Source of the DNA: Schaalia meyeri
Lineage (GTDB): Bacteria > Actinomycetota > Actinomycetes > Actinomycetales > Actinomycetaceae
NCBI RefSeq assembly: GCF_900105015.1
Contig: NZ_FNLK01000010.1
Coordinates: 60,001-92,000, forward strand
Direction: 5' to 3'
Length of the DNA: 32,000 nt
A model generated the notes under the pieces. The model had not been told where the DNA came from, searched no databases, and was given only the letters and a program-made list of their open reading frames with translations. Position numbers and translations under genes: made by a program. Position 1 is the first letter of the stretch. The number at the start of each line of letters is the position of its first letter. Below are positions 6,528 through 29,359 of the stretch, in pieces.

Positions 6528-7922
<1,395 letters not shown>

Positions 7923-8328: not shown

Positions 8329-8342
8329 GGACCTGCGACAGT

Positions 8343-8372: not shown

Positions 8373-8404
8373 ACGCCTCGGATCGCGGTCCCGGAAACGG
8401 GATG

Positions 8405-8434
8405 GCCTCGTCCCCGCCCGGCACGGACATGTGG
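8405..8434. repeat. 30-nt direct repeat, copy 2; ends 15 nt before ATG 8450
   Basis: Identical to 8343-8372. The 62-nt offset is not a multiple of 3, and the flanks diverge immediately. Confidence 0.85.
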
Positions 8435-8449
8435 GACCATGGAAGAGTG

Positions 8450-9373: not shown

Positions 9374-9457
9374 CCGGCCCCGGGATCGCCCCGTCGGCTT
9401 GCCCCCACGCGGCCTGTGGCCTCGGCCAGCGCGGGCACGAGGGGCTAGGCTGGAGGC

Positions 9458-10122
9458 ATGATGGTGATACCCGCTGACCTGCCCGCACTCGTCGCTCCCG
9501 TTGCGTGGATGCTTGGAACGTGGGAGGGGTGGGGCATGCGTGCTGGCTGCGGCGAGTCCGGCGAGGCATGCCAGTCCGGCGAGGACGCTCCCGTGATCGA
9601 GGAGATCCGCGGGGATGTTGTGGGCGAACAGATGCGCCTGGTGACCCGCGTGTACGCCGGTGTCTCCTCGGCGCCGATCGACCCGACGTGGGACGCGGCC
9701 CATGGGCTCTCCGTGATCGCCAAGGGCGACCTGGTGAGCGAGGAAACCCTGTACGTGTCGGTCGCCCCCTCTGACGCTCCGCTGCCGCCCCCGGCCAGTA
9801 CAACCCGCGCGAGTTTACCGCGACGTCGGCATCTACCGAGGGGCACGCCGCCGTATGGGACGGCGTGAGCGTGGGTCCGCGCGTGCAGATGGTCTCCGAC
9901 GCGATCGCGCTGGGGGCGAGCGCGGCGCGCGTCAATCACCTGGGCCGGATGTTCGGCCTGGTGGCGGGCGAGCTCATGTGGACGCAGGAACGCTCACTCG
10001 ATGGCGAGGATCAGGCGAACGTGGAGATTTCTGGTCGCCTGATGCGTACCGCGCAGGCCTCCACGGAATCGGGTGAGGCCATTGAGGGCATCGACGATTC
10101 TCAAGGGGGTTTTCTTGTCTGA
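9458..10122 (+). pseudogene. Nitrobindin / FABP-like (DUF1794) beta-barrel protein, split by a frameshift
   Basis: ORF1 (9458-9868) starts with the family-typical LP.L..L.WMLGTWEGWG. The C-terminal strands (VNHLGRMFGLVAGELMWTQE...ISGRLMR) lie in ORF2 (frame open from 9775 to 10122). The frames switch around a C5 run at 9788-9792. Confidence 0.5.
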
Positions 10123-14422: not shown

Positions 14423-14485
14423 TCTATTCGCCAGTTGTGTGAGGTTGACAAGCTTTCAATATTTGCGGAACGACCCGTCGATCTG

Positions 14486-14494
14486 TGATAGAGT
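14486..14494 (+). promoter_or_regulatory. Candidate extended -10 promoter (TGA-TAGAGT) for the large-protein/MoxR cluster
   Basis: TGnTAGAGT lies in the A/T-rich 186-bp gap after clpC, about 115 nt upstream of ATG 14609. Confidence 0.35.
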
Positions 14495-14608
14495 ACCCTC
14501 TGATTGTTAGGTAACTATTTGTCTGATAGGTTCTAATTAACTATTGATCCTGGGTAAACTCGTGCCACACTATACCTAGGGCAATGCTCATCAATCGAGA
14601 GAGGGTCT

Positions 14609-17600
14609 ATGACCGCGCGAGCGCGACGAAACGTGACTAGCCTGAGGCGACGCCTGCCGTCGGCCATTCTCATGCTGATCGTCGGGGCGCTCTGTATTGC
14701 GGGCATCATCTACAAGGGCGCCGAGGTGACCCAGGTGAACGTCAACGACGGCGGAATCTGGGTGACAAACAAGTCCAAGCAGATGGTCGGCCACCTCGAC
14801 TACGAGGCCCGTATCCTCGACGGCGCGCTGCGCACCGAGGCGACCAACTTCGACGTCGGACAGGCCGCCGAAACCGTCACGGTGTCCGACCTGAGCGCAC
14901 TCACCGTTTCCCCGGTCAACGTGACGCAGGTGGCCCTGGGATCCCCGACCGTTTTGCCCCCCGGCGCCAGCGTGATGCAGGGCGGCGACGTCCTGGGCGT
15001 CCTGAACGCGGCCGACGGCACCCTGTGGACGACCTCTGCGGCTTCCCCCAGCTCGAATAACCTCTCCGACGGGGCGGCCCTGGCCTCGAACATGGGGGCC
15101 AGCGCCTTCGTGACCGGCACGGATGGTACCGTGTACTCCCTGTCCGCCTCCGGCACGCTCACGACCGTGAAGCACCAGGGGTCGATCGACGAAACGAAGA
15201 CCAGCCAGGTGAGCGGCATCCCCGAGGACGCGCGGCTCACCATGACGGCCGTCGGCGACCAGGTTGTCGCCCTAGATACCGCCTCCAACACCCTCTTCCT
15301 GCCCGGGAACAAGACGCTGGATCTGAGCGCGGTCGGCGTCGAGTCGGGTGGCGTCCTACAGCAGGCCGGCCCAAAGGATAATTCCGTCCTGCTGGCCACC
15401 GCCTCGTCCCTGGTGGAGATCCCCCTGCGGGGCGGGAACCCCGTGATCACCCCCGCGGCCGAGGGAGCCCCCAGCGGCCACCCCGCAGCCCCCGTGCGTC
15501 ACGAGGGCTGCGCCTACAGCGCGTGGAGCGGATCGGGCGCGTACATACGGTCGTGCGACGACCCCTCCGCCAACAGGCAAATGATCGTCGATACGCTCAC
15601 GACGGCTCAGGAGCTGGTTTTTAGGACCAACCGCAAGGCCATCGTCCTCAACGACGTCGCGCAGGGCAGCGTGTGGCTGCCCGACTCCAACATGGTGCTC
15701 ATGGACAACTGGGACGAGGTCGAGAACCAGCTCGAAGAGAGCGAGGAAGAGCAGGACAGCCCCGAGCTGACCAACGAGGTCGCGGACCCTGAGCAGCGCG
15801 AAGAAAACACGCCCCCCGAGGCCGTGGATGACGACTTCGGCATCCGCCCCGGTCGCTCAACCGTCCTGCCCGTCCTGGATAACGACTCCGACCTGGATGG
15901 AGACGTGCTCACCGCATCCCCGACCTCCCAGCCCGGTTGGGGCTCGGTCGTGGTGGCGCGCAGCGGGCGTGCCCTGCAGATAGAGAACGTATCGGCCAGC
16001 CAGACAGGTTCCACGTCGTTTAGCTACGAGGCATCCGACGGGCAGGCATCCGCCTCCGCGCGCGTCCAGGTCACGATCCACCCCTACGGGCAAAACGAGG
16101 CGCCCGTCCAGCTGCGGTCCTCCACCGTCAAGATCGGCGCCGGCGCGCAGATCCAGTACCAGGCGCTCAGCGACTGGCGCGACCCGGACGGGGATCCCAT
16201 CTACCTGAAGGATGTCCAAGCCCCCGGCGGATTGAACGTGTCGTTCATCGAGGACGGCACGTTGACGATCACCGAGGAAGGCAGCGCGGTCGGCCCGAAG
16301 ACCGTCGTCCTGACCGTCGCTGACGACCAGGGCGGCGAGGCGCACGGCGAACTCGTCGTCAACGTGCAGGAGGCCGGTAACCTGCCGCCTTCGGCCAACG
16401 GAGACCTTTTCCAGGCGCACCCGGGCGAGACCGTCACCCTGGACCCGCTGAAGAACGACACGGACCCCAACGGCGATCCGCTCTCCCTCGCGGCTGTGTC
16501 GGGCACCCCGGCGGGCGTGACCGTCACTCCCGACCTGGATCGGGGAACCATTGATTTTCGGGCGCAGCAGCCCGGGTCCTACTCCTTCGCGTACACGGTT
16601 TCCGACGGTCTCGCGACGACGCTGGGGATCATCCGCGTCGAAGTCGTGGCCTTCTCCGCGTTGCCCCCCGTCGCCGAAAACGACACGGCCGTCCTGCCGC
16701 AGGGCGGGTCCGTGCTGGTCAATCCGCTGGGTAACGACTATGACCCTGCCGGCGGCATACTCTCCGTCACGTCGGTCGACACCTCGAGGGCGCCAGGTAT
16801 CCAGGTCGCCCTCATCGAACGCCACCTGCTGCGCGTGACGGCCCACGCCGGTCTGTCCGAGACGGTGACCTTCTCCTACACGGTGTCTAACGGGCAGGCG
16901 AGTGCCACCGCCGAGGTGACGGTCATCCCCGGTGCGCCCGACCGTTCCGACATGCCACCCATCCTCAAGCCGGACCGCGCCAAGGTGCGCGTCGGCGACA
17001 TCGGCACCGTGTCCGTGCTGTCGAATGACCGTTCCCCGGCCGGGTTGAACCTACAGGTCGAGTCGACCCTCCAATACGACCAGGCTTCTCCCGTGGGAAC
17101 CCCCTTCGTGACGGGCAACCAGGTGCGCCTCGAGGCTGGAACGACTCCCGGGATCCTAGAGGTCATCTACACGGTCATCGATTCCGCGGGCAACCGCGCG
17201 TCCAGCACGGTCACTTTCGAGGTCATCCCCGACTCCGAGAACAACGAGGCGCCGCGCCCGCGCACCCTCAACGCCTGGACCAGCGCCGGACAGAACGTGC
17301 GTATTCCCGTCACCCTGAACGGCATTGACCCGGACGGGGATTCCGTCACCCTGGTGGGTGTGGATTCTTCGCCCACGCAGGGGGTGGCGACCGCCTCCAC
17401 CACGTGGATCGATTACACGCCGAACCGCGGCGCGGTGGGTACCGACACCTTTACCTACACGGTCGAGGACCGCAGGGGCGCCCGCGCTTCGGCGCGCGTG
17501 CGTGTCGCGATATCCCCCGCCCCTTCGTCCAATCAGAACCCCGTGGCCGTCCCGGACACGGTGCAGGCCCGGCCTGATCGTGTGCTCACCATCAACGTGC

Positions 17601-20461
17601 TGTCCAACGATGTCGACCCCGACGGTGATTCGCTGTCCCTGGATGAGGGCGGGCTGTCCACCGCGACATCCGAATTGGCGCCGCAGGTGCGTTCGGCCTC
17701 GACGATCCAGGTGCGCACCCCCTCGGAGCCCGGCAGCTACGCGGTGGCTTACACGGTCTCGGATGGGCGCGGCGGGTCCGCGGTGGGCCTGGCCACCATC
17801 TACGTGTCCCCCGACGTTGCCCTGAAGGCGCCCGTCGCGCGCGACGATTATGTTGCCTACACGGAACTGCCCGACGACGGATCGGCGGTGCGCGTGCGCG
17901 TCACCGAGAACGACGAGGATGCTGATGGATCGGTCGACGAGCTGACGGTCACCACCGGTGAAGACGGGGTGAGCGTGAACGGCCAGGACCTGCTGATCCC
18001 CGTCTCCGACCAGCTCCGCCTGGTCGTCTACACCGTGACCGACCGTGACGGCTTGACCAACTCCGCCGTCGTGACGGTCCCCGGACGCAACACGACCGCC
18101 CCCTTCCTGAACAACGCGAATCTGCCCATCGAGGTGGACGCGGGCACCCAGCGCACGATCAGCCTCTCCGACTATGTGACGGTGCGTTCGGGCCGCTCCC
18201 CGCGGCTCGCGGCGGACTCCTCCCCGCTCGCTCAAACGGGCCTGGACTCCGTGGTCGCCGGGGGAGACTCGCAGCTGACGATCAGCGCATCCCAGGGTTT
18301 CTCCGGTCATACGGCCTTTGCCATCCAGGTGAGCGACGGAGACGACAGCGGTGCGCTCTCCGCGACCCTGTCCGTGCCCGTGCACGTGCGCGCCACCCAG
18401 AACCAACCCCCCACGTTTACGCCGACCACCGTGCGCGTCAAACCCGGGGGCAATCCCGTCAGCCAGAACCTGGCACTCGGCGTGTCCGATCCCGAGGGCG
18501 CCGACCCCTCAACCTTCACGTACGCGCTCGGGGCCGCCCCCGACGGTATCACCGCCTCGCTGTCGGGATCGACGCTGAGCGTTTCAGCCGCCGAGGGGAT
18601 ATCCCGCGGCCAGGTCGGTGCCATCGAGGTGACCGTGACCGACACGGACGGAAACTCCGTCTCCGGTTCCGTCCCCGTCGAGGTGGTGGATTCCACGAGG
18701 CCGCTGGTCTCTGTGCCCGCCACTTACCAGCTGCATACCCGGGTCGGCGAGAAGGTGACGATTGATGTTGCCCGTATAGCTACCAAACCGTCCCCGGATT
18801 CGTTGCTGGCCCTGGAGGGCCCGGCCACCACCTTAGGTAGTGCACAGGTTGATACCAAGGGCACGGAGGTGTCGATCACCCCGTTGAGCACCGAAACCGT
18901 CACGGTGACCTATCGCATCACCGACCGGTTGGGCGACCTCTCGCGCGCCGTACAGGGGACCCTCACCGTTACGGTGGACGGCGGCCCGCCGGATGCCCCG
19001 ACAAGCGTGCACGCCGAGCTCGTGGGAAAGAAAAAAGCCCGTGTTACCTTCACCCCGGGTAAAGACAAGGGCAGTAAAATTCAGGGCTACAGGGTGTATG
19101 CGACGACGGGCGAGGAGATGACCGCGGAATGCCCCCTCCGCGACGACCACGTCGTGTGCAAGGTCAAGGGCCTAGAATTGGGGCGGGACTACTCTTTCAC
19201 CGTCGTTGCCCGTAACGCGGACGGCGAATCGAAGCACTCACTCCCCTCGAATCCGATTACGACGAGCGACAAACCGGGTCAGATGGTTCGCCCCATCGTG
19301 ACCCCTGGCGACTCCGAGCTGAAGGTGTCGTGGGTGCCTCCGGAGAGTAACGGCGGATACTCGATCGACCACTACGAGTTGAAAATTAACGATAAGGCCA
19401 CTGGTGTGCCCTACGACGACACGTCGGCCAACATTCCCGCCCTGAACGGGCGCGACTACTACGTGCAGGTTCGAGCGGTCAACCGCGCGGGCAAGGGCCC
19501 CTGGTCCCCGCCCGCCTGGGGCCGCCCACGCCCCTCGCACGTGAACCCCGATCAGCCGAGGGTCTCCCTGAACGCCCAGAGGGCTGCATCGGGAGAGGTC
19601 AGCGTGAGCGTCTCCTGGACGGTCGGCTCCAGCGGGGGCAGCGGCTGGGGCAATACGACGGTCAACGTGAATGGCGATCCCATCACCGTCCCCGGGGGCA
19701 TTCGCTCCTGGAAGGGAACGTTGCCAGCTTCGGTGAACAGCGTGACTGTGATCGTGACGGTCTCCAACGTCGAAGGGGATACCGCTACGTCCAGTCCGCA
19801 GACCAGGAGGGTGCCCCCGAATGGGCCGCCGCTGACACCGGACGCGCCGACCATTACCGCCACGGGTAATTCCGGCCAGCTTCTGGTCTCGAACGTCAGG
19901 GTCAAGCCCGGCAGGGGCTACGTGGCCGATGACCTGACCGTGTTCTGGGGCACGAGCGGGGAGGAATGCCAACAAAAGGCGCGCGCTCGCGACCCAAACC
20001 GGCACATCCACGGCACTAACTTCATCTGGCGGGGCGGCTCCGATACCAACGGGGTGCTCCAGAGGTTCTTCTTCTGCCAGATCTCCACGTCCGACGAGGT
20101 ATCGGACAGCGTGGTGGCTACCGGCACGCCGAAGGACAACAACGCCGGTGGAGACGAGAAAGACTGGGAGAACGTGGACATCCGCACGAAACGTGAAGAG
20201 ATCGACGGTGGCTTCGAGATAAAAATCAAGCACACCAAGGAGATCAAGGGCATGTGCAGGTACGGGTGTCGATTGAAGGTCGTTGATAGCGCGACCGGGA
20301 CAAGGATCTACACGCAGAGCGAGGTGATCGTTTCGGAGAACGAGACCCCGACCCTGCGTGCGTACTGGAACCAGCTGCCTTCGGACCCCAAGGAGTATCG
20401 CATCGGTTTGTACATCACCCTGTCGTCTGGGAGAGACATAATCAAGTACGTCGACCGTTAG
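14609..20461 (+). CDS. 1950-aa N-terminally anchored surface protein with cadherin/Ig-like Ca-binding repeats and FN3 domains
   Basis: Arg-rich N-terminus plus one TM helix (LPSAILMLIVGALCIAGIIY). This is followed by a ~330-aa domain with propeller-like DG(T)-repeats and an acidic linker (EESEEEQDSPE...). Roughly ten ~100-aa modules follow, at least 8 with recognisable NDxDxDGD-type motifs (LDNDSDLDGD, KNDTDPNGD, SNDVDPDGD, ENDEDADGS ...). Then come FN3-like modules (PPDAPTSV..GYRVYA..YSFTVVARN; SELKVSWVPPESNGG..YYVQVRAVN) and a ~190-aa Cys-containing C-terminal domain. Confidence 0.85.
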   Translation: MTARARRNVTSLRRRLPSAILMLIVGALCIAGIIYKGAEVTQVNVNDGGIWVTNKSKQMVGHLDYEARILDGALRTEATNFDVGQAAETVTVSDLSALTVSPVNVTQVALGSPTVLPPGASVMQGGDVLGVLNAADGTLWTTSAASPSSNNLSDGAALASNMGASAFVTGTDGTVYSLSASGTLTTVKHQGSIDETKTSQVSGIPEDARLTMTAVGDQVVALDTASNTLFLPGNKTLDLSAVGVESGGVLQQAGPKDNSVLLATASSLVEIPLRGGNPVITPAAEGAPSGHPAAPVRHEGCAYSAWSGSGAYIRSCDDPSANRQMIVDTLTTAQELVFRTNRKAIVLNDVAQGSVWLPDSNMVLMDNWDEVENQLEESEEEQDSPELTNEVADPEQREENTPPEAVDDDFGIRPGRSTVLPVLDNDSDLDGDVLTASPTSQPGWGSVVVARSGRALQIENVSASQTGSTSFSYEASDGQASASARVQVTIHPYGQNEAPVQLRSSTVKIGAGAQIQYQALSDWRDPDGDPIYLKDVQAPGGLNVSFIEDGTLTITEEGSAVGPKTVVLTVADDQGGEAHGELVVNVQEAGNLPPSANGDLFQAHPGETVTLDPLKNDTDPNGDPLSLAAVSGTPAGVTVTPDLDRGTIDFRAQQPGSYSFAYTVSDGLATTLGIIRVEVVAFSALPPVAENDTAVLPQGGSVLVNPLGNDYDPAGGILSVTSVDTSRAPGIQVALIERHLLRVTAHAGLSETVTFSYTVSNGQASATAEVTVIPGAPDRSDMPPILKPDRAKVRVGDIGTVSVLSNDRSPAGLNLQVESTLQYDQASPVGTPFVTGNQVRLEAGTTPGILEVIYTVIDSAGNRASSTVTFEVIPDSENNEAPRPRTLNAWTSAGQNVRIPVTLNGIDPDGDSVTLVGVDSSPTQGVATASTTWIDYTPNRGAVGTDTFTYTVEDRRGARASARVRVAISPAPSSNQNPVAVPDTVQARPDRVLTINVLSNDVDPDGDSLSLDEGGLSTATSELAPQVRSASTIQVRTPSEPGSYAVAYTVSDGRGGSAVGLATIYVSPDVALKAPVARDDYVAYTELPDDGSAVRVRVTENDEDADGSVDELTVTTGEDGVSVNGQDLLIPVSDQLRLVVYTVTDRDGLTNSAVVTVPGRNTTAPFLNNANLPIEVDAGTQRTISLSDYVTVRSGRSPRLAADSSPLAQTGLDSVVAGGDSQLTISASQGFSGHTAFAIQVSDGDDSGALSATLSVPVHVRATQNQPPTFTPTTVRVKPGGNPVSQNLALGVSDPEGADPSTFTYALGAAPDGITASLSGSTLSVSAAEGISRGQVGAIEVTVTDTDGNSVSGSVPVEVVDSTRPLVSVPATYQLHTRVGEKVTIDVARIATKPSPDSLLALEGPATTLGSAQVDTKGTEVSITPLSTETVTVTYRITDRLGDLSRAVQGTLTVTVDGGPPDAPTSVHAELVGKKKARVTFTPGKDKGSKIQGYRVYATTGEEMTAECPLRDDHVVCKVKGLELGRDYSFTVVARNADGESKHSLPSNPITTSDKPGQMVRPIVTPGDSELKVSWVPPESNGGYSIDHYELKINDKATGVPYDDTSANIPALNGRDYYVQVRAVNRAGKGPWSPPAWGRPRPSHVNPDQPRVSLNAQRAASGEVSVSVSWTVGSSGGSGWGNTTVNVNGDPITVPGGIRSWKGTLPASVNSVTVIVTVSNVEGDTATSSPQTRRVPPNGPPLTPDAPTITATGNSGQLLVSNVRVKPGRGYVADDLTVFWGTSGEECQQKARARDPNRHIHGTNFIWRGGSDTNGVLQRFFFCQISTSDEVSDSVVATGTPKDNNAGGDEKDWENVDIRTKREEIDGGFEIKIKHTKEIKGMCRYGCRLKVVDSATGTRIYTQSEVIVSENETPTLRAYWNQLPSDPKEYRIGLYITLSSGRDIIKYVDR

Positions 20462-20539
20462 GTCGGCTCTGCCAGCGGCCAGATCGGTTGACGACCCGAC
20501 GGACAAAAATACAACACGAACGAAGAGAAAAGGATACTC

Positions 20540-21505
20540 ATGTCACTGTCCATTGAGGACGCGACGCGTTTCGCCCAGGTTTTCAAGAGCCTCGTTAACG
20601 GTGTGTCCGTGGCGGTCTTGGATAAGCGCCAGGCCGTGCGGCTCGCGCTCACGACGATGTTCGCCGGCGGGCATCTGCTGCTTGAGGACGCCCCCGGCAC
20701 CGGCAAGACCGCGCTGGCACGCGCGATCAGCGCCGTCATTGATGGCACGCACTCGCGTATCCAGTTCACCCCGGACCTGCTGCCCTCGGACATCACGGGC
20801 GTCAACATGTTCAACCAGAAGACCGGCGAGTGGGTCTTCCACGCGGGCCCCGTTTTCGCGGAGATCGTCCTGGCGGACGAAATCAACCGCGCCTCGCCAA
20901 AGACGCAGTCCGCCCTCCTGGAGGTCATGGAGGAAGCTCAGGTCACGGTGGACGGCGTTCGCCGACCGGCCCCCCAGCCCTTCATGGTCATCGCTACCCA
21001 GAACCCCGTCGAGCAGGCCGGTACCTACCCGCTGCCTGAGGCCCAGCTGGATCGCTTCCTCATGAAGACCTCGATCGGCTACCCGTCGCGCAGCGCGATG
21101 ATCGACGTGCTGGACGGTTCGGCCGCGCCCGACCGTTCGAAGAACCTGCAGCCAATGGTCACGGGACGAGACATCGTCGCCTGGTCGTCCCTGGCGTCGG
21201 CGAACCACACGGACCGGGCCGTCCTGGACTACGTGGCCGCCCTGGCGGAGGCGACCCGTGAGGACGAGTCCTCGCTGCTGGGCGTGTCCACTCGCGGTGC
21301 GATCGGCATGGTGCGCTGCACCCGCGTGTGGGCGGCCGCGCAGGGGCGCAACTTCGTCCTGCCCGATGACGTCAAGGCACTCGCGGTGCCCGTGTGGGCA
21401 CACCGCATCGTCGTCGACCCGGACGCCGCGTTCTCCGGCGCGACCTCCGAGGGCGTCATCCAACGAGCTTTGACCTCGGTGCCTGCCCCGGCAGTGGGCG
21501 CCTAG
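20540..21505 (+). CDS. MoxR-family AAA+ ATPase
   Basis: 321 aa. Walker A DAPGTGKT, Walker B IVLADEINRASPKTQSALLEVMEE, and the MoxR-typical length and C-terminal lid. An AAGGA RBS is present. Confidence 0.9.
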   Translation: MSLSIEDATRFAQVFKSLVNGVSVAVLDKRQAVRLALTTMFAGGHLLLEDAPGTGKTALARAISAVIDGTHSRIQFTPDLLPSDITGVNMFNQKTGEWVFHAGPVFAEIVLADEINRASPKTQSALLEVMEEAQVTVDGVRRPAPQPFMVIATQNPVEQAGTYPLPEAQLDRFLMKTSIGYPSRSAMIDVLDGSAAPDRSKNLQPMVTGRDIVAWSSLASANHTDRAVLDYVAALAEATREDESSLLGVSTRGAIGMVRCTRVWAAAQGRNFVLPDDVKALAVPVWAHRIVVDPDAAFSGATSEGVIQRALTSVPAPAVGA

Positions 21506-21525
21506 GACGTCTATCGACAACCACG

Positions 21526-22755
21526 ATGGAAGGGAAGCGTTCGGAAAGCAACGACATGGTCTGGCACTCACGGGAGCAGGCCAGCGGTTCGCGTCCCCTC
21601 GCAAAGTTGGCGGGAGCGGTCACACCGATCGGATGGGCCGTTATCACGCTCATCTTCGTCGGCGTGGCGCTGGCAGCAGCACTCGAATGGGTCGAGGCCC
21701 TGGCGTGCGCGCTGGCGGGCGTCGTCACGTTGGTGCTGGCGGCCCTGCGCGTCGCGTGGAAGCCGCCGCACCTCGTGTCGATCCGCGTCCCTAACGAACG
21801 CATCGTCGCCGGACAGACGGCCGTCGGCGAGATCCTGGTGCGCAACGAGCGCTCCCGCCCCGTCCGATCCGGCATCATTGAGCTACCGATCGGGTCAGGC
21901 ACCGGCGAATTTGTCGTGCCCCCGTTGGGTGCCCGCAGGTCGTGGGACGAAATGTTCCTGATATCCTCGCGTCACCGTGGCCTCATCAACGTCGGGCCGG
22001 CGCGGTCGGTGCGATCCGACGCCCTGGGGCTCTTGCGCCGCGTGCGAGTGTGGGACGAACCCGTCGTCCTGCACGTGCACCCCCGAACGGTCCGCGTCCC
22101 TTTCGATGCGACCGGCTTTCAGCTGGACGTGGAGGGCGTGTCCACCGGCAAACTCTCCAGCTCGGACGTGTCGTTCCATGCGCTGCGTGACTACGAGCCG
22201 GGGGACGATCGCCGCGCCGTCCACTGGCAGTCGACCGCCCGTTTGGGCAAGCTCATCGTGCGCCAGTACGAAGAAACGCACCGTTCGCACCACGTCATCG
22301 TCCTGGACACGTCGCGCGACGCCTGGGATCACGATTCTTTCGAAACGGCCGTGTCGGTTGCGGCGTCGCTGGGCCTGGCTAACCTGCGCGAATCGCGTCC
22401 GGTGTCGGTAACCACGACCGACACGTGGCTGCCTTCCGGGGGCGCCATGCGTATGCTGGATGCCCTGTCCGAGGTGGGGGCCCGCTCCGGCGGCGATCTT
22501 TTCCTGCGCGTTCGCGAGGCCCTGGCTCAGCGCCCCGGCGTTTCCGCGCTCACGCTCGTGGTCGGTCCGAAGGTGACGGATGTGGATGCCGCGCACCTGG
22601 CGCGCCTGGCTCCCATCGATGTTCCCGTCTCCATCATCCGTATCGGCGGCGGCCGGGGCGGGCGTACGCGGCGGGATCTGGGGCGAGGGGTGCTCCTGGA
22701 CTGCTCCAAGCTGGATGACCTGCCGCGCATCATCGTCGCCGGGGGGCTGGCATGA
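21526..22755 (+). CDS. DUF58 (vWA-like) membrane protein, the usual MoxR partner
   Basis: Two N-terminal TM helices and the DUF58 signature ALRDYEPGDDRRAVHWQSTARLGKLIVRQYEE. The start is at ATG 21526 (alternative 21556). The track start at 21394 overlaps moxR. Confidence 0.8.
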   Translation: MEGKRSESNDMVWHSREQASGSRPLAKLAGAVTPIGWAVITLIFVGVALAAALEWVEALACALAGVVTLVLAALRVAWKPPHLVSIRVPNERIVAGQTAVGEILVRNERSRPVRSGIIELPIGSGTGEFVVPPLGARRSWDEMFLISSRHRGLINVGPARSVRSDALGLLRRVRVWDEPVVLHVHPRTVRVPFDATGFQLDVEGVSTGKLSSSDVSFHALRDYEPGDDRRAVHWQSTARLGKLIVRQYEETHRSHHVIVLDTSRDAWDHDSFETAVSVAASLGLANLRESRPVSVTTTDTWLPSGGAMRMLDALSEVGARSGGDLFLRVREALAQRPGVSALTLVVGPKVTDVDAAHLARLAPIDVPVSIIRIGGGRGGRTRRDLGRGVLLDCSKLDDLPRIIVAGGLA

Positions 22756-25433
22756 GCCGTAGCACCGTCGACACCAAGCCGCGTATCCAGCGGGTCGATC
22801 CCCAAGCGGGGCACCCAGCCCCCTCGCCCGTGTCGACCCAGCCCCGTTCGATGGACGTCCCGCCGCCAGAGTCGGCCAAGCCCCGGGGATCGGACGATGC
22901 CCGCGGCGCTTCGCAAGGCACGCGCCCCAAGACGACACGATCGCGCCTGCTGTCGGTCACGCAGCGCTTCGCGACGTATCGTTCGAAGCTGCCGATGTGG
23001 TCGCTCCTGGTGCTCGCCGTCCTGTTTGCCGGTCCGGTCGCCGCCTTTGAACCCGTCTTTGGCGGCGGAGTTGGCGCAATCGCCGCGGCTGCCGGTGTGG
23101 TCAGTGGCCTGTTGATTGCCGCCGCGTCGACCCGATGGCGGTGGGACGTGCTGACGACGGTGCTGAGCATCGTGGTCACGTATTTCCTGCTGGGCAGCGC
23201 GGCGGCGCTGCGCTCGGAGGCCCTGTTCGGTTTCCTGCCCACGGGACGGACACTGCAGGTCATGGTCCTGGGGTCTTTCCGCGCCTGGAAGGATCTGCTG
23301 ACTCTGACGGCACCCGTGTCCGTGTACTCGGGGCCCGCCCTGGTGCCGTGGATGAGTGGCCTGATCCTGGCCGTCGTCGCTGGCCTGATCACCGCGCGCG
23401 CAGGACGCGCGATTGTGGGTTCCATCCCCCTGGTGATCATGGCGGTTATCGCTGTGTTCTTTGGGCTGACGCGCCACCCGCTGCCCGTGTGGGTGGTGCT
23501 CGCCTGGTGGGCGCTGCTGGTCGCCTGGTGGGCAACGGCCGCCCAGTACCAGCGCATCACGCTGGGTCAGGACGTGCTGGTGGGGCGCACGGGATCCCGC
23601 GGAGGCGAGGCCACGGTCGGGCGCCGGTCTCGATCGACCGTGTACGTGGGGACGCGGATCGCTGGCGCGCTCATCACGCTGGCGGTCTCCGTGGGTGTGG
23701 CGCTGCCCGCCGCGTCCTTCCTGGGGGCGTCGGGTTCGCGCATCGTGGGCCGCGACCTGGTGAAGCCGCCCCTTGACGTTCAGGCGTACCCCTCTCCCAT
23801 GTCCTCGTTTCGTCACTACACGACCGACCTGAAGGACGAGGCGCTCCTGACCGTATCGGACCTGCCCGAGAACCAGCGTGTGCGCATCGCCGCGATGGAC
23901 GTGTACGACGGTACGACCTTCGGCATGTCCGAGAATCGCGGCGACGGCCACACGGGATACATTCTGGTGGAAACGACCATCCCCGGACGAGCCGAGGGTA
24001 CCTCCGTGACCACGGTGACCACGACTGGCCTGTCGGGTCCGTGGGTGCCCGTCCTGGGGGAGCCCTCCCAGATCGCCTTCACGGGCCCCAACTCGGCCGC
24101 GCAAAAGGCGGGGCTGCACGTCGATACGTGGGCGAACGCGGCCCTGACGACCGGCCCCGCCGGGACCATGAGCTACAACGTGACCACGGACTTTACTGCT
24201 CCCGTGCGCGACGAAGAACTGGCGAACCTGGTGGCGCTGCCGTCGACGTCGCAGGACACGAACGTGCCCGAGGGCATCAAGTCAAAGGCCGCGGATATCA
24301 CGCAGAACGCGGTAACGCCGCTGGCTGCCGCGCGCACGATCGAGCAGTATCTGGCGACGAACGGCTACTATCTCAACGAAAACACGCAGTTTTCGCGGCC
24401 GGGCGTGCGCACCGACCGCCTGGAGCGCATGCTCTTTTCGGACGAGAATCTGATAGGCGATGACCAGCAGTACACGGCCATCATGGCTCTCATGCTGCAC
24501 CAGCTGGGCATCAACGCGCGCGTCGTCATGGGCGCGTACCCGGAGGGCGGTTCCCAGGGTGGTGCTGCGACCCTGCGCGGATCGGACATCCGGGCGTGGG
24601 TGGAGGTCGAGTTCGCCGGTGGCGTGTGGGGGGTCTTCGATCCGACGCCGCCGCGTGACCACACGCCGCAGACGCAGGTTCCCAAGCCTCGTTCCGTGCC
24701 GCGCCCGCAGGTGCTCCAGCCCCCGGAGCCCCCGGAGCCCCCGGCCGAGCTGCCTCCGCCGACGAACGACCAGAACGCCGACCCGAACAAGCCCCCCGAG
24801 GCGGGCTTTCCGTGGAGGATCATTGCCGGTGTTTCGGGCGGCTTCCTGCTGCTCCTGCTGCCCCCGCTGGCGATCATAGCGTTCAAGGCGGGACGCCGCA
24901 GGCGCCGCCGCCGAGCACCCGCCGGTGACGCGCTGATCGGTTCGTGGGACGAGGTCGTGGACCTGGCCGCCGATTCCGGCCTGCGCATTGAGGTCGGGCG
25001 CACGCGTCAGGAGACCGCGTGGTCCCTGTCCTCCCAGTGGAAGCTCGGCGAGGATCCGGGCGATCCCTTTACCCTGGTGACGGGTGAGATGCGTCCCGGG
25101 GAGGATGGCTCGATATACTCCGTCGAAAACGCCGCCGCCGGGCAGGGGCGCTACGTGATCGACGGGTGGAGCCGCTTCGGCGGCGACGTACCGGCTCCGG
25201 TCGTCATCGCCCGCTATGCGGACGTGGCGAACTTCGCGTCTCACGGTGCCTCCCGTGACCGTGCGCGTGCCGCGTGGGTTCAGGTGGTTGCGCTGCGCAC
25301 GCAGGTGACCAAGCGCTTTGGCTTCTTTGCCCGCGTGCGCCAAGCGCTGTCCCTGCGCAGCCTGCGCATGCGTCATAAGCTGCGCCAAAGCGCCTCGGCT
25401 GCGCGCGCGACGCGAGAGGAGACACAGCAGTGA
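22752..25433 (+). CDS. Multi-pass transglutaminase-like membrane protein (TgpA-like architecture) with a non-canonical triad
   Basis: ATG overlaps the DUF58 stop (ATGA). There are about 6 N-terminal TM helices, then a TGase-like core (GDDQQYTAIMALMLHQLGINARVVMGAY ... DIRAWVEVEFAGGVWGVFDPTP). A Pro-rich linker, a further TM helix, an RRRRRRR stop-transfer and a C-terminal cytoplasmic domain follow. Confidence 0.75.
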   Translation: MSRSTVDTKPRIQRVDPQAGHPAPSPVSTQPRSMDVPPPESAKPRGSDDARGASQGTRPKTTRSRLLSVTQRFATYRSKLPMWSLLVLAVLFAGPVAAFEPVFGGGVGAIAAAAGVVSGLLIAAASTRWRWDVLTTVLSIVVTYFLLGSAAALRSEALFGFLPTGRTLQVMVLGSFRAWKDLLTLTAPVSVYSGPALVPWMSGLILAVVAGLITARAGRAIVGSIPLVIMAVIAVFFGLTRHPLPVWVVLAWWALLVAWWATAAQYQRITLGQDVLVGRTGSRGGEATVGRRSRSTVYVGTRIAGALITLAVSVGVALPAASFLGASGSRIVGRDLVKPPLDVQAYPSPMSSFRHYTTDLKDEALLTVSDLPENQRVRIAAMDVYDGTTFGMSENRGDGHTGYILVETTIPGRAEGTSVTTVTTTGLSGPWVPVLGEPSQIAFTGPNSAAQKAGLHVDTWANAALTTGPAGTMSYNVTTDFTAPVRDEELANLVALPSTSQDTNVPEGIKSKAADITQNAVTPLAAARTIEQYLATNGYYLNENTQFSRPGVRTDRLERMLFSDENLIGDDQQYTAIMALMLHQLGINARVVMGAYPEGGSQGGAATLRGSDIRAWVEVEFAGGVWGVFDPTPPRDHTPQTQVPKPRSVPRPQVLQPPEPPEPPAELPPPTNDQNADPNKPPEAGFPWRIIAGVSGGFLLLLLPPLAIIAFKAGRRRRRRRAPAGDALIGSWDEVVDLAADSGLRIEVGRTRQETAWSLSSQWKLGEDPGDPFTLVTGEMRPGEDGSIYSVENAAAGQGRYVIDGWSRFGGDVPAPVVIARYADVANFASHGASRDRARAAWVQVVALRTQVTKRFGFFARVRQALSLRSLRMRHKLRQSASAARATREETQQ

Positions 25434-26968
25434 GTCCAGTGGCCGCGGGCTTGAAGGGCCCCGATATTCCAGGTTTCCGATGGGTTCGTCCGCTGGGGCA
25501 GGGCGGCTTCGCCGACGTGTTTTTGTATCGTCAGGAGCTGCCCAGCCGCGACGTGGCGATCAAGGTCGTGCGCGCGCAGGGGGATGAGCGGGGCACGAAG
25601 GAGCTGCATCGCGAAGCAGACGCGATGACGCTGCTGTCCGGCCACCCCTCTGTCGTGGAGCTGCACGGCGTGGGCACGACCGCGGATGGGCGCGCCTACC
25701 TGGTGATGGAATATTGCCCGGTGGCTGATCTGCTCACGCAGGTGCGCGCGCGTCCGATGTCTCTGGAGACGGCGCTGGACATGATGATCAAGATGTGTGG
25801 CGTGGTCGAGACGTTTCATTGGAAGGGCTACGTGCATCGCGACATTAAGCCGTCGAACATCATGCTGGACGCCTATGGAAAACCGGTGTTGGCTGACTTT
25901 GGCGTGGCCTCGAAGGCGGGGCAGCTGGAGGTTGGCGCATTCGATGGTTTTTCGGTCCTGTGGGCGCCTCCGGAGCAGCAGGACGTGTCCTCCGCTGCGT
26001 CGCCGTTGCAGGACGTGTGGGCGCTGGCATCGACGACGTGGACGTTCGTGACGGGGCGCAGCCCGTTCGAGGATCCAATCGGGGATAATTCGGCGGCGTC
26101 GATCGCGAATCGTGTGCAGCGCGGGCGCGTGCGCGCCTTGGGGCGGGCGGACGCTCCGGCGGAGTTGGAGCGAGTGCTGCGCACCGCGATGTCCGTCGAT
26201 CTGGCGGAGCGCACGCAGTCTGCGAAGGCGTTTGGCGAGGGGCTGCAGCGCGTCCAAAAAGAGCTGGGGTACCCGCGCACGGAGATGGAAATAAAGGAGA
26301 AGCGTTCGAAGGCGGCCGCCGCTGCGGTCAGCGCGGACGACAGGACCCGTCTGCGCGGCGCGGCATTGATCGACGCGGATGCGACGCGCCTGCGCTCCTC
26401 CTCGCCCTATTCCTTTGAGGGGGGAACGGGTTCCGGAGGCGTCGAGGCCGTAGCGGATTCGTGGAAGAGCGAGCGCTCCGCTGACTTAGACGATTCCTCC
26501 TCCAGCCGCGTCGTCGAGGAGGCGGCGGCAACCGGGAGGGGCCTGACCCCGGTGACGGGTGCGATTCTGGCGCTGCTGGCCGCGGTGATCGCCGCGGGCC
26601 TGGTCGTGGGTATGCTGCGCGGCCAGGGTTCTTTTACTCGTATCGCGCCCGGGAAGGAGACGACGACCCCGTCTGCGGCTCCGGGTGACGCGTTGGGCGC
26701 CGCCCCGCCGCAGGTGACGGATTTGACGGGCGAGTACGCGGACGGCCTGGTGGCGTGGAAGTGGAGTGCCCCGGAGGGCATCGCCCAATCCGACATCGTG
26801 TACGTGTACGAGGGGTCGAGTGAGGGGGGAACCTCGCGCGGTCGCGTCAACGAGACGACTGTGAGCGTGGACGCCTCCAGCGGAGAGAACTGTATGCAGG
26901 TCACAACGGTGTCGCGGTCGTCGGGGCGTTTGTCCGATCCGGTTCGCGCGTGCGTGACCGTTCCGTGA
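25430..26968 (+). CDS. Receptor-type Ser/Thr protein kinase (Hanks type)
   Basis: GTG overlaps the upstream TGA (GTGA). Kinase motifs: G-loop LGQGGFADV, VAIKV lysine, HRDIKPSNIML, DFG, APPE. A single TM helix (about 26545-26617) precedes a ~115-aa ectodomain with an FN3-like pattern. Confidence 0.9.
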   Translation: MSPVAAGLKGPDIPGFRWVRPLGQGGFADVFLYRQELPSRDVAIKVVRAQGDERGTKELHREADAMTLLSGHPSVVELHGVGTTADGRAYLVMEYCPVADLLTQVRARPMSLETALDMMIKMCGVVETFHWKGYVHRDIKPSNIMLDAYGKPVLADFGVASKAGQLEVGAFDGFSVLWAPPEQQDVSSAASPLQDVWALASTTWTFVTGRSPFEDPIGDNSAASIANRVQRGRVRALGRADAPAELERVLRTAMSVDLAERTQSAKAFGEGLQRVQKELGYPRTEMEIKEKRSKAAAAAVSADDRTRLRGAALIDADATRLRSSSPYSFEGGTGSGGVEAVADSWKSERSADLDDSSSSRVVEEAAATGRGLTPVTGAILALLAAVIAAGLVVGMLRGQGSFTRIAPGKETTTPSAAPGDALGAAPPQVTDLTGEYADGLVAWKWSAPEGIAQSDIVYVYEGSSEGGTSRGRVNETTVSVDASSGENCMQVTTVSRSSGRLSDPVRACVTVP

Positions 26969-27044
26969 GAGCGATCACCTAATCGCGCCAGTTTTGTTGC
27001 GCGCAGCGCGTCTCTTCGTGGCGAGGCACCGGTTACGTCGCGTG

Positions 27045-27050
27045 TAGAAT
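27045..27050 (+). promoter_or_regulatory. Candidate -10 box (TAGAAT) in the kinase-phosphatase gap, bracketed by GGTTAC(C)GTCGCG direct repeats
   Basis: TAGAAT lies 54 nt upstream of ATG 27105. The repeats are at 27031-27042 and 27051-27063. Confidence 0.35.
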
Positions 27051-27104
27051 GGTTACCGTCGCGCGTAATCCCTCGCGCCCAACACAGTGGAAAGATGAAG
27101 GCAG

Positions 27105-27977
27105 ATGGCTCTCGATGAACAGGCGGAGCAGCCCGCAGTTCGGTGGGGTGCATCGACCGACATCGGGCCGGTTCGATCAGAGAACGAGGACTCGTGGCTG
27201 GCGGTTCCGCCTGTCTTTGCGGTCGCCGATGGGATGGGTGGTCACCTGGGCGGCGCTCAGGCCTCGTCCACGGCTGTTCTCACGCTGCAGGAGTTTCTCA
27301 GCCCCGACAGGCTAGGCGACCGCGCGGTGGACTTGGTGGACCTGTCCGTTGCGATTGATTCGGCTGCCGCTGCGGTAGCCGCGCTGGCGTCGGACGATAA
27401 CCCGATGGGCGCGCCCGGCACGACGCTGTCGGGCCTCATGGTACTGCACACGGCCGAGGGCCCCTACTGGCTTTCCTTTAACGTGGGCGATTCGCGCGCG
27501 TACGTGGTGGGCGGCGGCGGAATCCGTCAGCTCACGCATGACCACTCGGCCCTGCAGGAGGCGCGCGACTTGGCGGCTGTCTCGGGTGCGCCGCGGGTGA
27601 TTCCCCCGGCGAACGTCGTGACGAAGGCGCTGGGCGCCGGGCAGTGCGGGACCGTGAAGGCCGACTATACAATTATGCCGTTGGAGGACGGCGATCGGGC
27701 GGTCATCTGTACGGACGGCGTACACGGAGTGCTTCAGGATGCGCAGCTATATGCGCTGGTTGCCGCGGGGAACGGTCCGCAGGGAAACGCCGACGATCTG
27801 ATTCAGGCTTCTCTCGAGGCGGGTACTCGGGACAATACGACAGCCGTTGTGGTTTACGCAGGAACCGAATCGCGAGTAACATTGACATCGAATGTCATGA
27901 GTCGAATGATTCAACCAGTACGTCCGGCGTCGATCGAGACCGCTCGCCGGATTCCTCGCAGAAAAGGCAGTAACTGA
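27105..27977 (+). CDS. PP2C-family Ser/Thr phosphatase
   Basis: Motifs RSENEDS, FAVADGMGGHLGG, ICTDGV and GTRDNTTAVVV. There is no TM segment. Confidence 0.9.
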   Translation: MALDEQAEQPAVRWGASTDIGPVRSENEDSWLAVPPVFAVADGMGGHLGGAQASSTAVLTLQEFLSPDRLGDRAVDLVDLSVAIDSAAAAVAALASDDNPMGAPGTTLSGLMVLHTAEGPYWLSFNVGDSRAYVVGGGGIRQLTHDHSALQEARDLAAVSGAPRVIPPANVVTKALGAGQCGTVKADYTIMPLEDGDRAVICTDGVHGVLQDAQLYALVAAGNGPQGNADDLIQASLEAGTRDNTTAVVVYAGTESRVTLTSNVMSRMIQPVRPASIETARRIPRRKGSN

Positions 27978-29311
27978 TGCTTCAGATTGGACGCTTCCTG
28001 TGTCGCGGACAGGGCGCGATGCTCGTCACCGGACCGCTCGGTGCAGCGTTGGTTCCGCTGGATTTCGCGGATTCCGCGGCTGATGTCGTGTGGGGGCGTG
28101 CGGACACCCAGGCGTGGCTGTCTCACGTGCAGGCCGAACAGGGCGACGTCCTGCTGTTGGACTGCGCCGGCGAGCAGCCGTACCTGACGGTGCTCGGCAA
28201 CATCCAGCTGCGCATGCGCGCCGCCGGTCAGATCACCGAGCAGGTGTGGACCGACCCGATTTGGGCGTGGCCCTTTAATCCCGGCGAGTGGCAGACCTTT
28301 GAGGCCACCATCATCGACGGCGACGAGGTGACGTGGATGGTTCCCGCTGCCGACCGCGTCGAGGCCGCCGAGATCCGCATCGGTCGCGCTCTGGACGAGG
28401 TCGAGGCCATGGCCTCGATGCCCGTCGACACGATGGGCTTCCTCATCAACCCCGATATTCCCGATCACGAGCGTCGCGCGCGCAGAGAGGCCCGCGAGGA
28501 GCTTCCCGAGCCGTCGGTGCGCACCTCCTCCGTTGATCTGGAGGCCCTTGAGGCGCAGTTCCTGGCGGCCACCAACAACCCCCCGGTGTTCCTCTCGTCC
28601 TCCCGCGGGTCCTCCTCCGATGCGGATGAGGCCGCCCATGCTCCCGCCGAGCCGGACCAGGATGAGCCGGTCGAGCGGATCGACGAGGCGCCCAAGAAGG
28701 ATATCGAGCAGCCCTCGGGCGACCTTTACGTCGTCGCCGCCACGGAGGAGCCGCCGGTTGACACGGCGGAGTCCGCCTCCTCTGAACGCGCGGGCGCCTT
28801 CGACGAACCCAGCGCCCCCTCCGTTCCCGAGCCCGCCCCGGAACCCGTGATGGGCTCTCCCGCCGCGCCCGAGGCCATGAGTGCCGTTGGCCTGGCTGGC
28901 TTGAACGCGGAAACCGACACCGAATCCACGATTCTGCGTCTGCCCTCCGTGGACTCCGGCCCCGCCGCTCCGGTCGCCTTCCTCATTCACGGCGGCACCG
29001 TCCCCGTCGAGGTCTCACGCGATGTCGTCATCGGTCGCGATCCCGACGCGTCCGCCCTCACCGGCCGCCCCGCCGCCACCGTCCTGCGCGTTCCCAGTCC
29101 CGCGACGGAGATCTCGCGTTCTCACTGCGCCGTCATGATCACCGCCCCCGGCTCGTGGGCGCTCATGGATCTCGGCAGTGCGAATGGCACCGTCCTGCGC
29201 CACGCCGACGGCTCCTTCCAGGACGTCACCCCCATGGTGGCTCTCTCTCTGAGCGACGGTGACCTCATCGACGTCGGTGAGGGGACCACGGTCGAGTTCC
29301 GAGTGCGTTGA
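27977..29311 (+). CDS. FHA-domain protein with an unassigned N-terminal domain and a long acidic/Pro-rich linker
   Basis: ATG overlaps the PP2C stop (TGATG). The C-terminal ~95 aa carry FHA motifs (VVIGRD, EISRSHCAV, LMDLGSANGTVL, LSDGDLIDVG). The middle ~170 aa are low-complexity and rich in E/D/P/S/A. Confidence 0.85.
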   Translation: MLQIGRFLCRGQGAMLVTGPLGAALVPLDFADSAADVVWGRADTQAWLSHVQAEQGDVLLLDCAGEQPYLTVLGNIQLRMRAAGQITEQVWTDPIWAWPFNPGEWQTFEATIIDGDEVTWMVPAADRVEAAEIRIGRALDEVEAMASMPVDTMGFLINPDIPDHERRARREAREELPEPSVRTSSVDLEALEAQFLAATNNPPVFLSSSRGSSSDADEAAHAPAEPDQDEPVERIDEAPKKDIEQPSGDLYVVAATEEPPVDTAESASSERAGAFDEPSAPSVPEPAPEPVMGSPAAPEAMSAVGLAGLNAETDTESTILRLPSVDSGPAAPVAFLIHGGTVPVEVSRDVVIGRDPDASALTGRPAATVLRVPSPATEISRSHCAVMITAPGSWALMDLGSANGTVLRHADGSFQDVTPMVALSLSDGDLIDVGEGTTVEFRVR

Positions 29312-29330
29312 CATACATTCGACACGTGAT

Positions 29331-29359
29331 GTGGGGCGGGCCAGGTGGGCTCGCCCCAC
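29331..29359 (+). terminator. Stem-loop terminator candidate after the FHA gene
   Basis: GTGGGGCGGGCC-aggtg-GGGCTCGCCCCAC forms a 12-bp stem (one G-U pair) and begins 20 nt after the stop. It is followed by ACTCGTTTG. Confidence 0.6.

Follow-up and report, generated by a model that had tools for sequence, protein, structure and literature searches.

A seven-gene cluster of Schaalia meyeri very probably encodes the Esr1 epibiont-sensing pathway, with a predicted pseudo-transglutaminase and homology to the bifidobacterial PFNA operon

A 32,000-nucleotide stretch of the Schaalia meyeri contig NZ_FNLK01000010.1 (positions 60,001 to 92,000; hereafter "the window") carries seven open reading frames (ORFs), all on the + strand and spanning window positions 14609-29311. 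In order, they encode a giant surface protein, a MoxR ATPase, a DUF58 protein, a transglutaminase-like protein, a Hanks-type kinase, a PP2C phosphatase and an FHA protein. We conclude that this cluster is very probably the Esr1 pathway of a Schaalia species, working by the mechanism proposed below. The Esr (epibiont sensing and response) pathway was described by Wang et al. (bioRxiv, Sept 2026; PMC13622651). The cluster is already known and the system already characterized; with it, oral Actinobacteria would sense Saccharibacteria epibionts as a threat and turn on an Esx-based defense. A first-pass annotation of the same DNA had correctly recognized seven co-directional genes with this anatomy (all ORFs lie on the + strand and their domains could be assigned), and its proposal that they form one functional unit joining the giant surface protein and the MoxR-DUF58-transglutaminase-like triad to Ser/Thr phospho-signaling held up. 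Its statement that no characterized system had this composition did not, since both the Esr pathway (PMC13622651) and the PFNA operon of Bifidobacterium (PMC8430577, PMC6803598) exist.

The published genetics and phosphoproteomics of Esr were performed in S. odontolytica F0309 and the proteomics in S. meyeri W712. According to that description, EsrA carries a Sec signal and, at its N-terminus, a WD40-class beta-propeller, together with 14 immunoglobulin-like (Ig-like) domains, and lacks an LPXTG motif; it is accompanied by a MoxR and a vWA protein, by EsrD as the transglutaminase and EsrE as the kinase, and by EsrG, with the phosphatase EsrF present in Esr1 only. EsrG consists of a pseudophosphatase-like domain at the N-terminus, a disordered linker and an FHA domain at the C-terminus. 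In S. odontolytica F0309, removal of esrA1 abolished the response to Nanosynbacter TM7-008, including EsrG1 phosphorylation and the transcriptional response, and deletion of esrD1 released EsrA1 into the supernatant, indicating that EsrD keeps EsrA on the cell. The only infection-dependent phosphosite was T152 of EsrG1, and a T152A substitution phenocopied the loss of esrA1; for S. meyeri W712, EsrG1 T263 was reported as the phosphosite. Phosphorylation of EsrG drives a program of Esx secretion, wall polysaccharide and surface appendages. Esr2 clusters are embedded in esx operons, and 40% of the 3502 Esr pathways found adjoin esx (for all of these results, PMC13622651).

The window cluster has the same seven components in the same order as the loci of the S. 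odontolytica group and the same flanks, ClpC upstream and pyruvate phosphate dikinase (PPDK; start 29535) downstream; nothing structural sets it apart from Esr1. Domains were assigned with Pfam, NCBIfam and the precomputed gene calls on CP066065.1 (assembly GCA_016127995.1), which encodes the window FHA protein verbatim. The window EsrA has a Sec-type N-terminus, an N-terminal propeller and an Ig-like filament and lacks LPXTG, and the window EsrG has the published layout with both T152 and T263 retained. Orthology to Esr1 rather than Esr2 is indicated by S. odontolytica UMB0018 (locus L067) and about 17 similar loci, which share the flanks and all seven genes, and related genomes hold a paralogous Esx-linked cluster, as published. 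At the level of sequence, the analysis establishes both the orthology to Esr1 and the intactness of every part. An exact-sequence lookup of the ClpC in the upstream flank returned no record.

Species-representative genomes were scanned with a profile of the transglutaminase-like protein, which gave 72 loci, and tblastn was run with the seven proteins together with ClpC and PPDK. ORFs of distant loci were assigned by ORF listing and Pfam because a filter on GC content at third codon positions (GC3) is unsuitable for lower-GC genomes. All seven genes stand in the window order in 21 fetched loci, 20 of them from species-representative genomes and one from a metagenome assembly. ClpC was detected upstream in 19 of the 21, including S. 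odontolytica UMB0018, and PPDK downstream in 20. The A. oricola locus (L076) holds all seven genes in a different order, and of the 72 loci from the genome scan, nearly all share a five-gene core. The same layout was confirmed in an annotated metagenome locus. Co-occurrence in relatives had been set beforehand as the test that could refute the grouping; the genes co-occur, and because the seven-gene order recurs in 21 loci, the adjacency is far beyond chance. The nearest homologs carry the names Schaalia, Actinomyces and Pauljensenia. In the roughly 18 closest loci of these genera, identity was 93-95% for MoxR and mostly 80-84% for the FHA protein (range 72-84%); in the Schaalia/Pauljensenia loci nearest to the window, best-segment identity was 93-96% for ClpC, 92-93% for PPDK, 81-90% for DUF58, 83-87% for PP2C, 76-80% for the kinase and 74-78% for the transglutaminase-like protein. 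In the farther seven-gene loci it was 71-80% for MoxR and 55-72% for FHA.

The output protein retains the published phosphosites. EsrG (27977-29311, + strand; 444 residues) ends in an FHA domain (residues 351-434; E 3.4e-8) whose phosphothreonine-binding residues GR, SxxH and NG are intact. Residues 152 (MPVDTMGF) and 263 (EPPVDTAES) are both threonine, each within a PVDT motif, and carry the very numbers published for the EsrG1 phosphosites, T152 in S. odontolytica and T263 in S. meyeri; the exact agreement at residue 263 suggests S. meyeri as the source. Both are invariant in the ortholog alignment; in the aligned protein named as S. odontolytica, T152 has the same number and the second site is displaced by one residue. 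Residues 1-140 (27977-28396) are 97-98% identical in Schaalia/Pauljensenia orthologs, compared with 95% for ClpC. This N-terminal domain belongs to a small family that accounts for 43 clusters (50% identity) in a set of 1.84 billion representatives, and an FHA domain is present in 18 of 19 members.

The esrD-like gene (22752-25433, + strand; tgm in PFNA) encodes an 893-residue polytopic membrane protein with TgpA_N and Transglut_core domains. By hydropathy it has seven transmembrane (TM) helices, an ectodomain, TM8 at residues 690-708 and an Arg-rich cytoplasmic tail; in a Pfam search at permissive E-values of the tail and of the ectodomain preceding the transglutaminase-like core, only a weak TgpA_N match was found. 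The core occupies residues 511-640 (24282-24671, + strand). The only sequence in the PDB that EsrD matches is TgpA of Pseudomonas aeruginosa (PDB 6g49). When the two are aligned, the Cys, His and Asp of TgpA, which we take to be its catalytic triad, correspond to Asp571 (codon 24462-24464), Arg614 and Asp630, and the first-pass annotation had rightly called the protein a pseudo-transglutaminase. The motif GDD[EQ]QY is invariant in an 11-sequence EsrD alignment. Asp replaces Cys in all 74 motif hits among 80 loci, drawn from both Esr1-type and Esr2-type clusters, and the His position is His in 40 of the hits and Arg in 32. By tblastn the motif also occurs in three further loci, from Propionibacteriaceae, A. 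oricola and Actinomyces sp. Z16. Among Schaalia/Pauljensenia orthologs the core is 84-89% identical, and since this identity persists despite the lost triad, the core is under constraint. An active TgpA-like transglutaminase was rejected as a candidate because the canonical catalytic Cys and His are missing. From the substituted residues we infer that EsrD is a pseudo-enzyme, which would make non-covalent docking a more likely means of retaining EsrA than transglutaminase cross-linking. The preprint proposes a covalent EsrD-EsrA linkage without the usual chemical basis, and the words "catalytic" and "cysteine" are absent from its text (PMC13622651); docking explains the release phenotype equally well.

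The esrA1-like gene (14609-20461, + strand) encodes a 1950-residue surface sensor protein, the homolog of PFNA FN3, with Big_9, Cadherin_4/5 and two fn3 matches. Its N-terminal hydrophobic helix (residues 16-34; 14654-14710, + strand) would serve as a Sec signal or an uncleaved membrane anchor; the helix, LPSAILMLIVGALCIAGII, has a Kyte-Doolittle value of 2.55 with Arg-rich residues just before it, and in the structure model it extends over residues 7-34. This AlphaFold2 (AF2) model covers residues 1-480, was built from an input alignment of 23 sequences and has a mean predicted local distance difference test (pLDDT) score of 82; 10-residue blocks between residues ~50 and 360 score mostly 85-97 and are all-beta. 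In a Foldseek search of the PDB, the best matches of the N-terminal domain were beta-propellers (BamB, YVTN, NirF and Tako8, the last a designed 8-blade propeller), with probability 1.0 and E from 4e-8 to ~1e-6, which places a propeller at residues ~45-365 (14741-15703, + strand). Behind it lies a stalk of Ig-like/cadherin-like repeats with DxDxDG-type motifs (residues ~406-1450; 15824-18958, + strand). Pfam marks nine Big_9, five Cadherin_5 and six Cadherin_4 stretches in EsrA, and NCBIfam a tandem-95 repeat. The protein had been described earlier as Ca-binding and anchored. Six DxDxDG-like sites (seven overlapping regular-expression matches, one of them borderline) suggest Ca binding at the level of inference, and anchoring comes down to the single N-terminal helix, as a search for an LPXTG sorting motif in EsrA found none.

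The C-terminal third of EsrA (18959-20458, + strand) contains two fn3 domains (residues ~1459-1640; Pfam E 1.6e-23) followed by a region (residues 1641-1950) in which Pfam at permissive E-values, run on the last 311 residues (1640-1950), found no family. This third diverges rapidly. Best-segment identity of EsrA to Schaalia/Pauljensenia orthologs is 64-78%, mostly 64-67%. Against Esr1 orthologs, identity is 80-83% over the propeller (residues 45-365) and 78-81% over the first five Ig repeats, falls to 38-44% in the fn3 region (residues 1451-1640) and is 37-41% over residues 1641-1800; for residues 1801-1950, BLASTP against Esr1 orthologs found nothing at E <= 0.01. The same gradient from N- to C-terminus recurs in other ortholog pairs. 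A recently imported cassette at the lower-GC 3' end of esrA was ruled out by the GC3 of the C-terminal segment, which at 0.82 is native, so the C-terminus has diverged rapidly rather than been imported. Thus, as far as these alignments reach, it is the C-terminus of EsrA and not the propeller that diverges fastest within Schaalia, which points to the C-terminal tip rather than the propeller as the arms-race surface of the sensor in this genus. Because the propeller is conserved and lies beside the N-terminal helix, it probably faces the conserved membrane machinery, and the C-terminal fn3/tip would be the outward, ligand-facing end.

The esrA1-like gene is followed by the gene for a MoxR-family AAA+ ATPase (aaa-atp in PFNA; 20540-21505, + strand; AAA_3 5e-62, AAA_lid_2 4.6e-22, bpMoxR 1e-11). 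It scores 208 bits with AAA_3 and 44.6 bits with bpMoxR, the latter above the bpMoxR Pfam cutoff, and a hydropathy search for a TM helix found none. Next comes a DUF58 (vWA-like) membrane protein (duf58 in PFNA; 21526-22755, + strand; DUF58 8.8e-11). The mechanical ORF begins at GTG 21394 and the gene call of the source genome at ATG 21526; the ATG is most likely the true start. Hydropathy gives two N-terminal TM helices (residues 35-53 and 59-77), and therefore the vWA-like domain is placed in the cytoplasm, as is MoxR. DUF58 is a member of the vWA superfamily, and with this family membership the cluster encodes MoxR and a vWA-type partner side by side, as required for an Esr pathway.

The esrE-like gene (25430-26968, + strand) encodes a receptor-type Hanks Ser/Thr kinase (Pkinase 1.2e-34) with, by hydropathy, a cytoplasmic kinase domain, one TM helix (residues 378-396) and an ectodomain of ~115 residues. 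The kinase motifs VAIK, HRDIKPSN and DFG are intact. Pfam and NCBIfam found no PASTA domain (PknB_PASTA 143 bits against a cutoff of 450). A PknB/PstP/FhaA cell-division cluster was rejected on this ground and because the neighbors are ClpC and PPDK rather than FtsW and a penicillin-binding protein. For the ectodomain, Pfam at permissive E-values gave no family, and its fn3-like look (AWKWSAP) is an impression only. The esrF-like gene (27105-27977, + strand) encodes a cytoplasmic PP2C Ser/Thr phosphatase (PP2C_2 7e-11; Stp1_PP2C 6e-42, which is below that model's cutoff) with the motifs ADGMGGH, GDSR, TDG and RDNTT. Between kinase and phosphatase lies a 136-bp gap (26969-27104) containing an extended -10-like element, GTGTAGAATGG (27042-27052, + strand), a candidate internal promoter that lies ~55 nt upstream of the PP2C start and occurs once in the window. 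Its core, TGTA[GA]AATG, is kept in four Schaalia/Pauljensenia loci (L078, L067, L020 and L008) and absent in L029. PP2C and EsrG may thus be under a promoter of their own, judging from this element.

We propose the following mechanism. EsrA would detect an attached Saccharibacteria epibiont while EsrD retains it on the cell, docking, as a pseudo-enzyme, the propeller end of EsrA non-covalently. The signal would cross the membrane via EsrD and the kinase, and the cytoplasmic DUF58(vWA)-MoxR pair would act as an ATP-driven switch. The kinase would phosphorylate the PVDT threonines in the disordered linker of EsrG, PP2C would reset them, and phosphorylated EsrG would be the output switch leading to the transcriptional program.

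Several points weigh against this assignment and its mechanism. The Esr preprint has not been peer-reviewed (PMC13622651), and its functional data on Esr1 were obtained in S. odontolytica and in S. meyeri W712; for the strain of the window the assignment is drawn from sequence. An Asp at the nucleophile position of EsrD could conceivably serve a non-canonical chemistry. Taking all Esr pathways together, the preprint ranks the propeller with the most variable parts (PMC13622651), and our divergence gradient applies to Esr1 orthologs within the Actinomycetaceae; if the N-terminal helix of EsrA is cleaved, the argument for its orientation is weaker. Finally, the preprint's assignment of a pseudophosphatase to the N-terminus of EsrG (residues 1-136) was not reproduced here: hhalign of this domain against the neighboring PP2C gave a probability of 0.06% and no similarity, searching PDB sequences with a profile brought no hit under E 0.8, and a structure model of EsrG, for which the alignment was shallow (7 sequences, ~85% identity), reached a pLDDT of 32.

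Start and stop codons overlap at ATGA (22752-22755, where the DUF58 stop overlaps the next start), GTGA (25430-25433) and TGATG (27975-27979), and the cluster is closed by a terminator-like hairpin (29331-29359, + strand) with a 13-bp G+C-rich stem. Folded within a 69-nt segment, the hairpin has -35.6 kcal/mol and z = -3.59, and none of 200 shuffles was as stable. These overlaps and the strong hairpin are where the first-pass annotation had placed them. Upstream of esrA lies a 186-bp intergenic region (14423-14608, + strand), a probable promoter/operator, with a ribosome-binding site, GAGAGG, before the ATG. Of the A/T-rich, promoter-like gap reported there earlier, the low GC content (43.5%, against ~67% in the cluster genes) and conserved blocks were confirmed; a consensus sigma-70 scan of the gap found no canonical promoter match. 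The blocks TGACAA, TCTGATAG, TAACTAT, CACACTAT and GAGAGG are kept in six orthologous Schaalia/Pauljensenia loci. Two near-repeats, TCTGATTGTTAGGTAAC and TCTGATAGGTTCTAAT, lie in the same gap beside TCTGATAG, TAACTAT and CACACTAT; blocks and near-repeats could be operator sites of some regulator.

In many of the related genomes, the contig with the first cluster also bears a paralogous second one, ~57-170 kb away in the three that were checked. It has the order giant protein-DUF58-transglutaminase-like protein-kinase, with MoxR, PP2C and FHA undetected by tblastn, and in L077, the single metagenome locus examined in detail, it adjoins several genes for mycosin-type S8 proteases. In distant Actinomycetaceae the order ClpC-giant protein-MoxR-DUF58-transglutaminase-like protein-kinase is followed by MycP, EccB, EccD and a WXG100-domain protein, and in Actinomyces sp. 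Z16 the series giant protein-MoxR-DUF58-transglutaminase-like protein leads into an RDD/FHA protein. Relatives annotated as environmental Actinomycetes, such as Arthrobacter, Microbacterium and Sinomonas, have members of the family as well.

Some of these loci have unusual gene content. In Pauljensenia sp. 20925_1_34 (L016, 12670-21676), Esr1-like genes A to E are followed by a second giant ORF of 2027 residues and then by a 421-residue ORF. The A to E genes of L016 have no PP2C, FHA or PPDK behind them by tblastn, and the same three are missing in L022. The arrangement in L016 suggests two Esr clusters in tandem, with PP2C and FHA lost or moved. In Arthrobacter alpinus (L079, 10001-21335) and Actinomyces sp. 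Z16 (L080, 10001-15794), the giant homologs are broken into many short gene calls, and the A. alpinus stretch apparently holds two successive giant-protein remnants. There are two possibilities for these split genes: either the assemblies are frameshifted or the genes are decayed.

Elsewhere in the window, an ISL3-family transposase gene (3655-4965, + strand; DDE_Tnp_ISL3 2e-56 plus a zinc ribbon) falls within a lower-GC stretch (4001-6000; GC 0.55-0.59, against ~0.67 elsewhere). The long ORFs at 6273-8186 (- strand), 8218-9477 (+ strand) and 29610-30887 (- strand) matched no Pfam family; the last runs antisense within the PPDK gene and can almost certainly be put down to high GC as an artifact.

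The other literature that bears on the cluster concerns the PFNA operon of Bifidobacterium (pkb2-fn3-aaa-atp-duf58-tgm-prpC-hyp-fha), studied by the Danilenko group since about 2014. It is polycistronic with a second start site upstream of prpC; in B. longum, Pkb2 phosphorylates the MoxR ATPase in vitro, and in vitro binding to TNF-alpha or IL-8 was seen with FN3 fragments comprising two fn3 domains and the C-terminal domain. The operon has been described as Bifidobacterium-specific and read as a host cytokine/adhesion module (for all of these, PMC8430577, PMC6803598). Bifidobacterium sequences were taken from the gene alignments in the supplement of PMC6803598. B. adolescentis TGM (WP_011743632.1) aligns with the window EsrD at 29% identity over 738 residues, membrane regions included (E 3e-45), and in this single Bifidobacterium TGM examined the triad positions are Ser, Thr and Tyr. 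The first 507 residues of B. adolescentis FN3 (WP_041777402.1) are collinear with the N-terminal 508 residues of the window EsrA (28%, E 3e-39), a part that covers the helix, the propeller and the first Ig repeat. By these alignments, Esr and PFNA are homologous.

Three other explanations of the cluster were weighed against the Esr1 reading. In one, which we consider unlikely, the triad acts as chaperone machinery for assembling, anchoring or remodeling the giant adhesin in the envelope, the kinase, PP2C and FHA proteins only gate this process, and the giant protein is cargo and not a sensor; the first-pass annotation had favored such a phosphorylation-gated MoxR assembly machine. MoxR ATPases are chaperone-like, going by what is known of the family, the cluster kinase of B. 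longum phosphorylates its MoxR ATPase in vitro, and the strongly conserved propeller and EsrD ectodomain fit a dedicated docking pair. One element of the assembly idea stands, in that EsrA depends on EsrD for its retention on the cell. The published genetics, however, make the giant protein an upstream sensor: once esrA1 is deleted, EsrG1 is no longer phosphorylated and the proteomic and transcriptomic response is almost entirely gone, which puts EsrA upstream of the kinase, and the only infection-dependent phosphosite lies on EsrG1 and not on MoxR or EsrA. Moreover, the transglutaminase-like domain lacks the nucleophile and with it the cross-linking that an assembly enzyme needs.

Slightly less probable still is that the cluster works as PFNA has been read, as a host-interaction module in which the giant fn3 protein serves as an adhesin or a cytokine-binding receptor for host signals and immune cues of the host are passed on by the kinase. 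The organism is host-associated, the gene set is the same, the homology extends over the full length of TGM and the N-terminal half-kilobase of FN3, and the fast-evolving part of EsrA in Schaalia is exactly the fn3/C-terminal region whose B. longum counterpart binds cytokines. Those binding data, however, were obtained in vitro with fragments and no knockouts; the Schaalia pathway responds specifically to an epibiont strain, the family is also found in environmental Actinomycetes, and a host-cytokine role leaves the frequent embedding in Esx loci unexplained. Least credible, to the point that we would hardly entertain it, is that an adhesin gene, a triad of the generic kind and housekeeping genes for kinase, PP2C and FHA stand side by side by coincidence. 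Each module type is, as general knowledge of the families has it, also found separately in Actinobacteria, and the 136-bp gap before PP2C contains a promoter-like element, but the synteny (seven genes in order in 21 loci and the five-gene core in nearly all 72) refutes this explanation. The three overlapping junctions, a kinase that lacks PASTA and scores below the PknB model cutoff, and an EsrG N-terminal domain from a small family found almost only with FHA also speak against it.

Among other known systems, the MoxR-vWA-beta-propeller ternary conflict systems of Kaur, Burroughs, Iyer and Aravind (2020; PMC7159879) likewise encode a MoxR ATPase, a vWA-superfamily partner and a propeller "sensor" together, with Ser/Thr kinase and FHA among the associated parts. 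The window ATPase, however, is a MoxR-proper AAA_3 protein, its partner is DUF58 and not of the vWA-MoxR-associated type, and the propeller is the N-terminal domain of a 1950-residue extracellular filament rather than a stand-alone protein. Pfam and NCBIfam found no effector or toxin domain in the seven window proteins, and PADLOC, run on the cluster, gave no system match, only generic kinase-domain hits (PD-T4-6, mad6 and PglW). Membership in these ternary systems was rejected on the bpMoxR score of 44.6 bits against 208 for AAA_3, the DUF58 partner and the lack of an effector or toxin. According to the preprint, Esr clusters went undetected in the survey by Kaur et al. (PMC13622651). Like TgpA of P. 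aeruginosa, EsrD combines the polytopic TgpA_N membrane domain with a transglutaminase fold outside the cytoplasm and one more TM helix; it differs in having Asp-Arg-Asp at the triad positions, with a Cys at the nucleophile position of TgpA. To our knowledge, TgpA is not part of any MoxR/kinase/FHA cluster.

A receptor Ser/Thr kinase, a giant fn3-bearing secreted protein, MoxR, DUF58, a transglutaminase-like membrane protein, PP2C and FHA are common to the window cluster and PFNA, and the extra transcription start site of B. longum, 58-61 bp upstream of prpC, is matched in position by the -10 element of the window. The two differ in that the kinase gene comes first in PFNA and fifth, after the transglutaminase-like gene, in the window, that prpC and fha of PFNA are separated by an additional hypothetical gene, and that the closest relatives of the window cluster are in Schaalia, Actinomyces and Pauljensenia and not in Bifidobacterium. 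The text of the Esr preprint makes no mention of PFNA or bifidobacteria, and the PFNA papers searched, all of them older than the preprint, contain no link to other actinobacterial genera. The analysis therefore ties two separate literatures to one homologous system and, in this homology, the lost catalytic Cys of EsrD, the C-terminal divergence of EsrA and the -10 element upstream of PP2C, adds to the main text of the preprint. Tentatively, and as a possibility that we rate somewhat short of even, Esr and PFNA could be one ancient actinobacterial surface-surveillance system whose working geometry departs from the current model, in that a dead transglutaminase docks the propeller non-covalently and a hypervariable C-terminal fn3/tip recognizes the ligand. 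If this is true, the "cytokine-binding" operon of bifidobacteria would serve to sense antagonistic bacteria or epibionts, or, alternatively, Esr-type sensors would recognize a much wider range of ligands, including those of the host.

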